Assembly: GCF_054482595.1 (NCBI RefSeq)
Contig: NZ_CM137008.1
Length of the DNA: 64,000 nt
Direction: 5' to 3' (one strand)
A program made the position numbers and the translations under genes. Each line of letters begins with the position of its first letter. Positions within the stretch are counted from its first letter, which is position 1. Below the pieces are notes generated by a model that did not search any database, was not told the origin of the DNA, and was given only the letters and a program-made list of their open reading frames with translations. This document shows, in pieces, positions 13,988 through 58,008 of the stretch.

Positions 13988-14075
13988 GGTGAGGTGTCCG
14001 AGTGGCTGAAGGAGCACGCCTGGAAAGTGTGTATACGGCAACGTATCGGGGGTTCGAATCCCCCCCTCACCGCCA
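13988..14075 (+). tRNA. serW: tRNA-Ser (anticodon GGA)
   Basis: GGTGAGGTGTCCGAGTGGCTGAAGGAGCACGCCTGGAAAGTGTG...GGTTCGAATCCCCCCCTCACCGCCA: class II tRNA with long variable arm, GGA anticodon, 3' CCA encoded. Confidence 0.95.
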
Positions 14076-14119: not shown

Positions 14120-14268
14120 CATTTTATCTGCCTGTACGGCAGTGAACATGGTGGGCGGGTGGAGTATGTTACCAGTGAATTTCTAAGCTGCCTGTACGGC
14201 AGTGAACGTTCGCTGCAACCGCTAGCCAAGACGGTAGGTTTTTCTAAGCTGCCTGTACGGCAGTGAAC
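14120..14268 (-). CRISPR. Orphan type I-F CRISPR array remnant (3 repeats, 2 spacers of 32-33 bp); no cas genes nearby
   Basis: Three copies of tttctaagctgcctgtacggcagtgaac (reverse complement of the I-F repeat GTTCACTGCCGTACAGGCAGCTTAGAAA) at about 14120-14147 (degenerate 5' part), 14180-14207 and 14241-14268, separated by unique spacers; sits between serW and clpA where the E. coli I-F locus is known to reside. Confidence 0.9.
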
Positions 14269-17654: not shown

Positions 17655-17726
17655 CTCTTCTGTCTCATTGTGTACATCCTAAAGGCAAAATGCCAGCCCG
17701 ATCGGCTGGCATTTTTATCTCAAAAA

Positions 17727-23547: not shown

Positions 23548-23972
23548 ATCCCCTCCAGAAATATGTGACTTATCCTTTACGCTGGCAGTATAACGGGAAA
23601 GGCCTTGCTAATACGTGATGACATCACATTTAAGCATGGCAAATGTCTGAAAAATGAGCGAATAATCGCGTTATACTCCCTCTTGCTGATAAGTCTGCAA
23701 AAACAACAAAATCAAATAATTAGCATGATAAATTATTTTTTATTACGCCTAAAGGATTAAATCTTTTGCTTGCACTACACTGTCAATCAGACAAATGACT
23801 ATATGGGGCAACCCGCTGTTGCCCTAAATCAAATTTACTGGATTTATTTATCTGGTGAATGACTCGCCTTCGTTTTTAAAATAGCCGCGCATTATTTCCG
23901 TCGTCACTTTTTTACGACGACCCTATAAAACGACCATATTTTTCACAGGGTCAATTTTTAATTGAGGTGGAT

Positions 23973-24668
23973 ATGTTCAGAAAATTAGCAGCTGAATGTT
24001 TTGGTACTTTCTGGCTTGTTTTTGGTGGCTGTGGTAGTGCTGTACTGGCCGCAGGCTTCCCGGAATTAGGCATTGGTTTTGCCGGCGTGGCGCTGGCATT
24101 CGGTTTGACCGTTCTGACGATGGCCTTCGCTGTTGGTCATATTTCTGGTGGTCATTTTAACCCGGCGGTCACTATTGGTTTATGGGCTGGCGGACGTTTT
24201 CCGGCAAAAGAAGTCGTTGGCTACGTAATTGCCCAGGTTGTCGGCGGTATTGTTGCAGCGGCGCTGCTGTATTTAATTGCCAGTGGTAAAACGGGTTTTG
24301 ACGCGGCAGCCAGCGGTTTTGCTTCTAACGGTTATGGCGAGCATTCACCAGGCGGTTATTCCATGCTTTCCGCGCTGGTAGTTGAACTGGTATTGAGTGC
24401 AGGTTTCCTGTTGGTGATCCACGGCGCAACCGACAAATTCGCTCCGGCAGGTTTTGCGCCGATCGCTATTGGTCTGGCCTTAACCCTGATTCACTTAATC
24501 AGTATTCCGGTGACTAACACTTCTGTTAACCCGGCGCGCAGCACCGCGGTTGCCATCTTCCAGGGCGGCTGGGCATTAGAACAACTGTGGTTCTTCTGGG
24601 TGGTGCCAATTGTCGGCGGCATTATCGGTGGTCTGATTTACCGGACCCTGCTGGAAAAACGTAATTAA
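23973..24668 (+). CDS. aqpZ: Aquaporin Z
   Basis: [27 protein letters not shown]..., two NPA motifs (HFNPAVT, NPARS); ORF-track start 23967 is an upstream GTG. Confidence 0.96.
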
Positions 24669-24677
24669 TTAACGCAG

Positions 24678-24706
24678 AAGGCCTGGCGCAATGTCAGGCC
24701 TTTTTT
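24678..24706 (+). terminator. Rho-independent terminator after aqpZ
   Basis: ggcctggcgcaatgtcaggcc hairpin followed by tttttt. Confidence 0.75.
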
Positions 24707-25152
24707 AAATATATTGATTCATCTTCCTGTTGCGCTCCTTGATGTGTTAAGCCACATATAGTCACTGGCGCAGGGAGCGCGCAGGGGGCGGCCAATCGCC
24801 GCCGCCCCCTGCACCCCCGGGCTCTGGCGAACAAAATCGCCGCTGCGCGGTACCCTCAGCTTATCCCTTGCGGCTACCGGGTCGGGCGCGAGGTAACATC
24901 CCTGTAAAACGCGCCCTCAGCCCACATCCATGTGGGCTGCCCCGGCCTTCAGGGAACGCCTCGGCGATTTTGACGCCACCAACACCGGTGCGGTTTGTAA
25001 TTAAAGAGCAAGAATATCTTTAAATGAAAATGAATACCCTACCGATCCTTATGCATAACATTTCCTTTTAATTGCAACTTTACTCGTCCTTCCGCTTTCA
25101 GTAGTGTGTCATCGCGCATTTCGACTTCTTTCTTTGCAAGGGCTGGGTTTTC

Positions 25153-52958: not shown

Positions 52959-53861
52959 CTAACCACCCGTTTTCAGGCAATATTCCGTCGTAGCGTGGCG
53001 TTCGATCCAGCGGATCATTTTACCCGCGATGTCGATACCGGTGGTTTTTTCTATTCCTTCCAGTCCCGGCGACGCATTCACCTCCATCACCAATGGCCCG
53101 CGATTAGCACGCAAAATATCCACACCAGCAACGTCCAGCGCCATCGTTCGCGCGGCTTTTATCGCGATTTCACGCTCCTGTGGTGTGATACTGGCGACGC
53201 TTGCCGCGCCGCCACGATGCAAATTGGAACGAAAATCGCCCTCTTTCGCCCGCCGTTCAATCGCAGCGACCACTTCATCGCCAACAACCAGACAGCGGAT
53301 ATCGCACCCTTGCGCCTCTTTGATATATTCCTGCACCAGAATATGCGCGTTCAGACCGCGGAAAGCGTCAATCACGCTTTCCGCCGCCTGACGCGTCTCC
53401 GCCAGCACGACGCCAATTCCCTGCGTGCCTTCAACCAACTTGACCACCAGCGGCGCACCACCGACCATGTCGATTAAATCGCTGGTATCATCCGGCGAAT
53501 GCGCAATGCCCGTGACAGGCAGGTCGATGCCCTGACGCGCCAGCAGTTGCATGGAACGCAATTTGTCACGCGCCCGGGCAATGGCGACCGACTCATTGAG
53601 CGGATAGCTCCCCAGCATCTCGAACTGGCGCAGTGCCGCCGTCCCATAAAAGGTAATGGCGGTGCCAATACGCGGGATCACTGCGTCAAAATGGGGTAAC
53701 TTGCGGCCTTTGTAGTGAATAGAAGACGCCGCAGGATTTATGTTCATGTAGCAAGAAAGCGGATCAAGAATTTCAACCAGGTGACCGCGCTGTATAGCGG
53801 CTTCACGCAGCCGCTTACACGAATAGAGCGTTCCATCCCGGGACAATATGGCAATTTTCAC
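52959..53861 (-). CDS. rimK: Ribosomal protein S6 glutamyl ligase RimK (ATP-grasp)
   Basis: 300-aa [38 protein letters not shown]... Confidence 0.95.
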
Positions 53862-57752: not shown

Positions 57753-57831
57753 GCCACTGCTTTTCTTTGATGTCCCCATTTTGTGGAGCCCATCAACCCC
57801 GCCATTTCGGTTCAAGGTTGGTGGGTTTTTT
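57753..57831 (+). ncRNA. rybB: Hfq-dependent small RNA RybB
   Basis: GCCACTGCTTTTCTTTGATGTCCCCATTTTGTGGAGCCCATCAACCCCGCCATTTCGGTTCAAGGTTGGTGGGTTTTTT: recalled RybB sequence with 5' seed GCCACUGC and terminal hairpin plus U-tail; located beside ybjL as in K-12. Confidence 0.9.
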
Positions 57832-58008
57832 GTTATCTAAATCCCCAAAATCTCCATTCTCTCCCCTGTCCAAAGCCTTATCTGACTGTCCTCTCTTCCA
57901 GAAAATCATTCTTTTTCGTACAAAGAACAAATAGTTATTGAGAAGCTTATTTAAAAACCTGAACAAAATCGGTAATATTCCTGGCTTTGCAATACACAGA
58001 TTTTTTAT

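Follow-up and report, generated by a model that had tools for sequence, protein, structure and literature searches.

The GC-rich hairpin element between aqpZ and lysO of Escherichia coli corresponds by sequence to TRIP1a/RRS-lysO and has a covarying fold that resembles TwoAYGGAY

The aqpZ-lysO intergenic region

The DNA analysed here (the window) is a stretch of 64,000 nucleotides from E. coli, in which the gene order around the aqpZ-lysO spacer agrees with the K-12 annotation of the homologous region. The coordinates of the features discussed are collected in Table 1. The spacer opens with a terminator-like hairpin and T run that lie upstream of the repeat and outside it, as in the preliminary description, where the structured segment was placed downstream of the aqpZ terminator. 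A simple terminator scanner did not call this hairpin, whose loop is 9 nt.

The repeat that follows has a G+C content of 65.5%, compared with 38% for the remaining spacer, and its core reaches 69%. In windows of 100 nt the G+C fraction is 0.63-0.72 over 24750-24999 and 0.33-0.45 in the flanks. The segment had been described as GC-rich, strongly structured, set in AT-rich intergenic DNA and spanning 24780-24940, or ~200 bp. Its composition and structure stand, but the span was drawn too short, as the repeat unit occupies about 24729-24995. Both of the hairpins that had been noted are present. The first is a perfect 12-bp inverted repeat with arms at 24781-24792 and 24801-24812 and 8 nt between them. 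The second is a 10-bp inverted repeat (24918-24927 and 24930-24939) that can sterically form a stem of 9 bp with a loop of 4 nt. Dinucleotide shuffles of the 64 kb yield, on average, 0.03 perfect stems of at least 12 bp with a loop of 3-10 nt. The window contains a single copy of the element.

Several familiar classes of intergenic element were considered and rejected. Neither hairpin is followed by a T run on either strand, which argues against an intrinsic terminator. The ends of the unit (GTTGCGCTCC... and ...CCGGTGCGGTT) do not form an inverted repeat, and no duplication is seen in the flanks, which argues against derivation from a MITE or insertion sequence. The view that this is not a standard REP is upheld by the lack of any naRNA4 match in 24500-25300 at E values up to 10, whereas a genuine REP at another position in the window reaches 72 bits. 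The element resembles REP/BIME sequences in being intergenic, GC-rich, palindromic, located 3' of genes and tied to chromosome topology, but it has no REP consensus, is much longer and occurs in far fewer copies. The literature on RSA, Box C and BEE95 repeats gave no lead to the element.

Other features were also seen in the window. Two CRISPR-DR4 repeats, spaced 61 nt apart (14180-14207 and 14241-14268, minus strand, 50.1 bits each), neighbour a tRNA at 13988-14072 (plus strand) and presumably represent a small residual type I-F-like array near clpA/infA of E. coli. The RybB sRNA gene is found at 57756-57834 (plus strand, 104 bits), and the REP/naRNA4 element mentioned above at 41685-41765 (minus strand). 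Four further perfect hairpins have stems of 11-14 bp (17687-17715, 41792-41822, 42682-42715 and 53358-53384). Runs of A or T border at least three of them, which makes terminators, either intrinsic or bidirectional, the probable explanation.

Table 1. Features of the aqpZ-lysO region and of inverted alleles at the same locus. Positions are those of the window unless another sequence (L number) is named.
Feature	Position	Strand	Remarks
aqpZ	23967-24668	+	Open reading frame; K-12 annotation of homologous region
Intrinsic-terminator-like hairpin and T run of aqpZ	24678-24708	+	Arms 24678-24685 and 24695-24702
Full repeat unit, TRIP1a, containing RRS-lysO	24729-24995		K-12 BLAST; ends set by 25-copy alignment
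Helix 11	24731-24780		8-bp stem, 24731-24738 with 24773-24780; variable 34-nt loop; 97.5% of cells paired
GC-rich core of ~222 bp, RRS of Pham et al.	24766-24988		Alignable by BLAST between E. coli and Klebsiella (query 38-260)
Helix 10	24781-24812		Perfect 12-bp G/C hairpin, 8-nt loop; 99.7% of cells paired
Published RRS G-quadruplex 20-mer, GGGGGTGCAGGGGGCGGCGG	24799-24818	-	Exact match; overlaps one arm of the 12-bp hairpin
Multi-branch core, TwoAYGGAY-like	24823-24980	-	Long outer stem around two adjacent GGA-loop hairpins and further arms
Helix 1, outer stem, 5' arm	24825-24847		Plus-strand numbering; pairs with 24957-24978
Helices 7 and 8, hairpin	24884-24916		Minus-strand loop AGGGAU (ACAGGGAUGU)
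Helix 6, hairpin	24918-24939		9 pairs; minus-strand loop AUGGAU (ACAUGGAUGU)
Helix 1, outer stem, 3' arm	24957-24978		
lysO (ybjE)	25153-26052	+	Open reading frame; K-12 annotation
Inverted allele, E. coli E69	L018 3886-4153		Same locus as window 24669-25152
Inverted allele, E. coli O158:H23 CFIAFB20140388 (NZ_CP076709.1)	L029 1597-1875		Same locus as window 24669-25152

Identity of the element

Judged by its sequence, the GC-rich hairpin segment of the aqpZ-lysO spacer is the TRIP1a of Rudd (1999), also called RRS-lysO (Pham et al. 2023, 2024). The element has already been named, mapped and studied experimentally, and does not constitute a new entity at this locus. TRIP1 was named by Rudd (1999) and surveyed by Li et al. 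2024 (PMC10888264), who list five sites: TRIP1a (aqpZ-ybjE), TRIP1b (putP, with an internal deletion of 125 bp), TRIP1c (yohI/dusC), TRIP1d (alx-sstT) and TRIP1e (copA-ybaP). In that survey TRIP1a is 266 bp long and lies 70 bp 3' of the aqpZ stop codon and 158 bp 5' of the ybjE/lysO start. Pham, Cox, Goodman and colleagues (PMC10287960, PMC11194060) have described the copies at lysO and dusC under the name 'replication risk sequences' (RRS), with a reported length of 222 bp and with GGGGGTGCAGGGGGCGGCGG as the sequence that forms a G-quadruplex (G4) (PMC11194060). In the family as published, the dusC copy is inverted relative to the lysO copy, lies ~1.3 Mb from it and is placed symmetrically to it about dif.

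Comparison with the K-12 aqpZ-ybjE spacer, which the preliminary description had called for, returned the same element: the window copy and the K-12 copy (NC_000913.3) are 94.8% identical over 268 nt by BLAST. The window allele is ~5% diverged from that of K-12, but the locus, the G4 20-mer, the orientation to the flanking genes and the inferred orientation to replication are all the same. Other sequenced strains, XH990 among them, carry an allele with 100% identity to that of the window. The 20-mer occurs exactly once in the window, against a chance expectation of 0. Three of the features that define membership in RRS/TRIP1, namely identity to K-12, a location between aqpZ and lysO after the aqpZ terminator, and GGGGGTGCAGGGGGCGGCGG on one strand, are present.

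Two related copies, each read in another E. coli genome, were also compared. One is a full-length sister copy directly 3' of dusC and 5' of yohP. The other, at putP, keeps both ends and lacks the middle. These correspond to what has been described for TRIP1c and TRIP1b, respectively, and so support the identification as TRIP1a. The dusC copy (RRS-dusC/TRIP1c) shares 91% identity with the window copy and differs in its locus and in two compensated changes in the 12-bp hairpin. The putP copy (TRIP1b) belongs to the same family but is found at another locus and is missing the whole two-hairpin core. Klebsiella copies have 80-87% identity and the same fold, but they occupy other loci and are followed by a REP.

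Predicted fold and covariation

When folded as single-stranded DNA (ssDNA), the minus strand of the 267-nt element reaches -83.0 kcal/mol (z -6.05) and its plus strand -79.1 kcal/mol (z -6.62), and none of 200 shuffles was equally stable. The fold was examined in an alignment of 25 full-length copies from E. coli, other Escherichia, K. pneumoniae, K. aerogenes, uncultured Klebsiella, Pseudocitrobacter and two metagenome-bin contigs. The last two are labelled Proteobacteria and Sporobacter and probably represent contamination by enterobacterial sequence.

The consensus fold of the G strand consists of 77 pairs in 11 helices, with standard pairs in 99.3% of alignment cells. Compensatory changes are found at 14 pairs (88 cells), whereas slid controls gave 0-3 pairs. 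None of 500 shuffles reached the observed values for percent paired, compensated pairs, compensated cells or covariation score. Several compensations cut across the split between Escherichia and Klebsiella, including one in the outer stem and those at four pairs of the 12-bp hairpin. The z-scores of about -6 on both strands, together with 14 compensated pairs against 0-3 in the controls, indicate that single-strand folding is under selection. The claim of strong structure, made originally from a single sequence, is borne out by these results.

Support is spread over several helices. The outer stem (helix 1) has three compensated pairs, including a change from A-U to C-G in 5 Klebsiella copies. 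Helix 11 has one compensated pair (C-G to U-A in 5 copies), and the 12-bp hairpin (helix 10) shows compensatory double changes at 4 of its 12 pairs across copies. In the hairpin formed by helices 7 and 8 the inner closing pair changes from G-C to A-U while the GGA of the loop is invariant in the 25 copies. Helix 6 has one compensated pair, A-U to G-C between Escherichia and Klebsiella, and its AUGGAU loop is invariant. In one of the inverted alleles described below (L029), the ACAGGGAUGU-type loop is 1 nt shorter and keeps GGA. The G run is broken in two copies (GGGGG to GAGGG, a natural variant of K. aerogenes), where a matching change in the other arm (CCCCC to CCCTC) preserves the 12-bp hairpin. 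That the hairpin is restored despite a broken G run indicates selection on the hairpin, and possibly on the G4 as well. Taken with the invariant GGA loops, this pattern of substitution suggests constraints beyond 'any stable fold' or 'a G4'.

The alignment also bears on the proposal that the segment is the remnant of a degraded protein-coding gene. Short open reading frames of 31-51 codons do overlap the element, as a gene remnant might leave. However, there is no Pfam match at E values up to 1, indels of 1 nt between the Escherichia and Klebsiella copies disrupt every reading frame, and substitutions track base-pairing rather than codon positions. An origin of this kind can practically be dismissed.

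The plus and minus strands can form nearly the same helices, with 79 pairs in common. Within the shared pairs there are 20 G-U cells on the G strand and 10 on the C strand, and the consensus fold of each strand gains G-U pairs of its own. Given the extent of the shared pairing and the weak wobble asymmetry, neither strand, nor DNA as against RNA, is singled out as the selected form. The G strand is the more stable in 25 of 25 copies (mean -145.7 versus -133.2 kcal/mol with RNA parameters), as expected of a G-rich strand.

Copies, orientation and natural variation

Of 5426 complete E. coli genomes searched by megablast, 5425 contain the repeat, and the median genome carries it at three places. 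The suggestion that the segment belongs to a dispersed repeat family other than REP was therefore correct, the family being TRIP1/RRS. The number of places ranges from 1 up to 8-10 per E. coli genome and is 13 in one chromosome-sized K. pneumoniae record. Such copy numbers fit poorly with a pure role as one pair flanking Ter. RRS have been stated to be widespread in enterobacteria. Among species-representative genomes, the exact pattern around the AUGGAU hairpin occurs only in Escherichia, Klebsiella, Pseudocitrobacter and a few metagenome bins, in addition to one chance match. Three bins, labelled Desulfacinum (L008), Proteobacteria (L009) and Sporobacter termitidis (L017), carry RRS copies of Escherichia or Klebsiella type with 82-96% identity. 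Their presence there is most likely the result of binning contamination.

Two arrangements occur at the lysO locus among the 5426 complete genomes of E. coli: 4030 match that of the window over 80% or more of a 481-nt probe, and in 896 the element is inverted between the same two genes. The junction sequences of the inverted allele are unrelated to those of the window, and the aqpZ terminator hairpin is missing. If the replichore layout of K-12 holds, which is assumed from synteny and coordinates, the G4 strand of the inverted allele would run with aqpZ and lysO and be the leading-strand template.

Orientation varies in Klebsiella as well. Six copies on a scaffold of K. pneumoniae ATCC 13883 read +,-,-,+,+,+ between 0.84 and 4.25 Mb. 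This pattern cannot represent one orientation to replication unless one replichore were only a few hundred kb long, which is implausible. Klebsiella copies are typically followed by a REP ~45 nt later. In one Klebsiella sequence (L004), two full-length copies (1564-1785 and 2001-2222) lie ~440 bp apart in a single spacer.

The distribution could also reflect a mainly selfish or neutral dispersed repeat, similar to a small mobile element, whose fold serves its own spread or persistence and for which replication gaps are a by-product. The variable copy number would be explained in this way, as would the limitation of some insertion sites to certain strains, the internally deleted derivative 3' of putP, the tandem second copy in L004, the REP regularly found after Klebsiella copies, and a diverged second subfamily (see below). 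The occurrence of both orientations at lysO with unrelated junctions is what independent insertions would give. However, the ends have neither terminal inverted repeats nor target-site duplications, a known associated transposase is lacking, and almost every E. coli carries the lysO copy. The phage genomes searched contain no match, and matches in the plasmid database are chromosome-sized, chromosome-derived or mislabelled records, none of them a real mobile plasmid. Several PLSDB 'plasmid' records are 4.8-5.4 Mb long, the size of a chromosome, and the 243-kb E. coli plasmid pEC16-AU-EG1 (NZ_CP194962.1) carries a chromosomal segment, putA-putP-TRIP1b-efeUOB. Because of this, the plasmid matches are no evidence of mobility of the element. 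A mainly selfish or neutral repeat is considered unlikely on balance.

The position of the repeat relative to genes bears on another alternative, a transcript-end element of the REP/BIME type that stabilises or insulates the 3' end of the upstream mRNA or acts as a supercoiling barrier. All five E. coli sites start 38-96 bp past a stop codon (Li et al., PMC10888264), and deletion of RRS shifts genome-wide supercoiling (PMC11194060). The C strand is co-directional with the upstream gene at aqpZ, dusC, putP, probably copA, and four annotated Klebsiella sites. Against this, the aqpZ terminator already precedes the element in the window allele, and the 896 genomes with the inverted allele depart from the orientation rule. 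In Klebsiella the neighbouring genes are convergent at most sites, which makes orientation uninformative there, and orientation calls based on open reading frames are noisy, especially in GC-rich Klebsiella, and yield no statistic. A transcript-end function is very unlikely to be the main explanation. The E. coli TRIP1 copies examined directly (window 24729, L002 2487, L003 2463 and L009 686) begin 38-70 bp past the stop codon of a co-directional gene. These upstream genes are aqpZ, dusC, putP and probably copA, with the inverted lysO allele as the exception, and they are too few for a statistic.

Relationship to TwoAYGGAY

TwoAYGGAY (Rfam RF01731; Weinberg et al. 2010) is a motif known from gut metagenomes, gamma-proteobacteria and Clostridiales, for which a link to CsrA has been proposed (PMC4333381). 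The Rfam scan recommended at the outset gave a partial answer. An end-to-end alignment of RF01731 with the minus strand of 24834-24973 scores 31.5 bits (E 0.007), which indicates a TwoAYGGAY-like element but is under the gathering cut-off of 43. Further RRS copies score 30.6-31.0 bits, and the remainder of this permissive scan of the region was noise (cow-rumen-3, MIR1437 and others). By Rfam's own criterion RRS is not a member of TwoAYGGAY.

The two share an outer stem around two adjacent hairpins with loops of the form A-N-GGA-Y. RRS differs in its second loop, AGGGAU, in its extra arms and in its flanking GC hairpins. Across copies, the minus-strand loop AUGGAU fits AYGGAY, while the loops AGGGAU, AAGGAC or AGGGAC have a purine at the second position. 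TwoAYGGAY is catalogued as an RNA, whereas the activity of RRS has been demonstrated at the DNA level.

A covariance model (R1, alignment A4) was built from RRS cores only, and scores the core of the window copy at 179 bits. Pseudocitrobacter vendiensis has, 80 nt away from its RRS copy and on the other strand, a second structured element that BLAST does not detect. This second element scores 49.2 bits with RF01731 (L028 5670-5733), above the cut-off, and R1 matches it over its full length (L028 5631-5788, plus strand) at 61.7 bits, compared with at most 17 bits for the best unrelated sequence in the 237 kb searched. G-rich GC hairpins come after this element. K. variicola contains a relative (L030 1499-1655) in which one loop has lost the GGA; its scores are 50 bits for R1 and 32.6 bits for RF01731. 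This second, diverged subfamily is essentially absent from E. coli. Based on these cross-matches of models and sequences, we conclude that the RRS core and sequences on the margin of the TwoAYGGAY family are related. The RRS, TRIP1 and TwoAYGGAY literature searched makes no link between the two, and a term search of the 2024 RRS paper found no mention of Rfam or hairpins.

This relationship raises the alternative that the element encodes, solely or additionally, a structured RNA of the TwoAYGGAY kind from the minus strand, the GGA loops of which would bind a protein such as CsrA. The end-to-end alignment to RF01731, the recovery by the RRS-core model of a Pseudocitrobacter sequence above the TwoAYGGAY cut-off, and the invariance of GGA in both loops of the 25 aligned copies are all consistent with an RNA. 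The inverted allele, moreover, puts the G strand right after aqpZ with no terminator between. We also take the loops ACAUGGAUGU and ACAGGGAUGU to resemble high-affinity CsrA sites (SELEX consensus).

However, in addition to the sub-threshold score, a scan of both strands found neither a sigma-70-like promoter nor a terminator-like site at the element. The sole promoter-like site of the scanned stretch, at 24529-24501 on the minus strand, lies within aqpZ and is directed away from the element. The G strand of the window allele runs antisense to aqpZ and lysO alike, and the wobble test picks no clear strand. The G strand contains four GGA, far below the number in sponges of the CsrB/CsrC type, and GGA is lost from one loop of the K. 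variicola relative. Support from transcripts or CLIP is absent from the searchable literature, and a literature search on CsrA with aqpZ or lysO returned nothing relevant. These points make an RNA product quite unlikely. A CsrB/CsrC-type sRNA in particular was rejected on the basis of the four GGA, the lack of promoter- and terminator-like sites, and the lack of a match to the CsrB and CsrC models.

A broader reading, put forward with more doubt than confidence, is that the RRS/TRIP1 core and TwoAYGGAY form one structural class of single-strand-folding genome elements. If this is true, many 'TwoAYGGAY RNAs' would be replication-gap elements acting at the DNA level, well beyond enterobacteria. 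Alternatively, the conditional essentiality of RRS would come in part from an RNA or protein-recognition function at the invariant GGA loops.

Replication-gap function

Published experiments on K-12 show that the folded G strand, when it serves as lagging-strand template, halts Okazaki synthesis and causes gaps. RecA and SSB accumulate on the lagging strand over 1.4-2.5 kb beside each RRS, and deletion of that RRS abolishes the peak (PMC10287960). The G strand of RRS blocks Pol I, II and IV in vitro, an RRS moved elsewhere produces gaps at its new location, and removal or inversion of RRS alters supercoiling genome-wide (PMC11194060). Both copies could not be cleanly deleted, and conditional essentiality was reported (PMC11194060). 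In the native K-12 orientation the G4 strand is the lagging-strand template (PMC11194060), and gaps are up to 2 kb in size. In single-molecule experiments, almost all encounters produce a gap if the G strand serves as lagging-strand template, compared with about two thirds if the C strand does (bioRxiv 10.64898/2026.06.16.732529). The purpose offered by the RRS authors, either a topological relief valve or a mark of the Ter macrodomain boundary, is a hypothesis. According to these authors, the only other bacterial sequence to program gaps through a folded G-rich strand is the pilE G4 of Neisseria gonorrhoeae (PMC11194060, bioRxiv 10.64898/2026.06.16.732529). It has no sequence relation to RRS, and is a short G4 motif serving antigenic variation, in contrast to a multi-helix repeat of 220-270 bp.

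The GC skew of the plus strand of the window is -0.030 over 64 kb, with six of eight bins negative. Judged by this weak signal, the minus (G) strand would have the sequence of the leading strand and hence serve as lagging-strand template, an orientation that fits the native one reported for K-12.

Given the identity of the element and the selection on its fold, the element is very probably RRS-lysO/TRIP1a acting in cis as DNA, in which the folded lagging-strand template leaves an ssDNA gap. On unwinding by the fork, the lagging-strand template, which in the window is the minus strand with its G-rich tract, would be exposed and fold at once into a very stable structure. This structure would combine the G-quadruplex tract, the hairpins supported by covariation and the multi-branch core. 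The lagging-strand polymerase would stall at the fold and the Okazaki fragment would be abandoned, leaving a transient gap of up to about 2 kb that would then be coated with SSB and RecA. From its sequence identity, the window allele would be expected to form gaps as the K-12 copy does. Several of the observations above count against this account in its simple form: the copy numbers, the inverted lysO allele, the mixed orientations in K. pneumoniae, and the signs of constraint on the 12-bp hairpin and the GGA loops.

Implications

Besides RRS, a single other bacterial sequence has been reported to program ssDNA gaps in replication. RRS flanks the Ter macrodomain and is reportedly conditionally essential, all of which has been published. 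New here are the covariation in 25 copies, the link to TwoAYGGAY, the inverted allele and the 13 places in a Klebsiella record.

These observations provide three leads for work on RRS. Selection has kept a specific fold of 77 pairs, including a hairpin that overlaps the G4 tract, beyond mere runs of G. The core is related to the TwoAYGGAY motif. The rules of orientation and pairing drawn from K-12 are not general, as about one-sixth of complete E. coli genomes carry an inverted lysO copy, and Klebsiella has about a dozen copies in mixed orientations.
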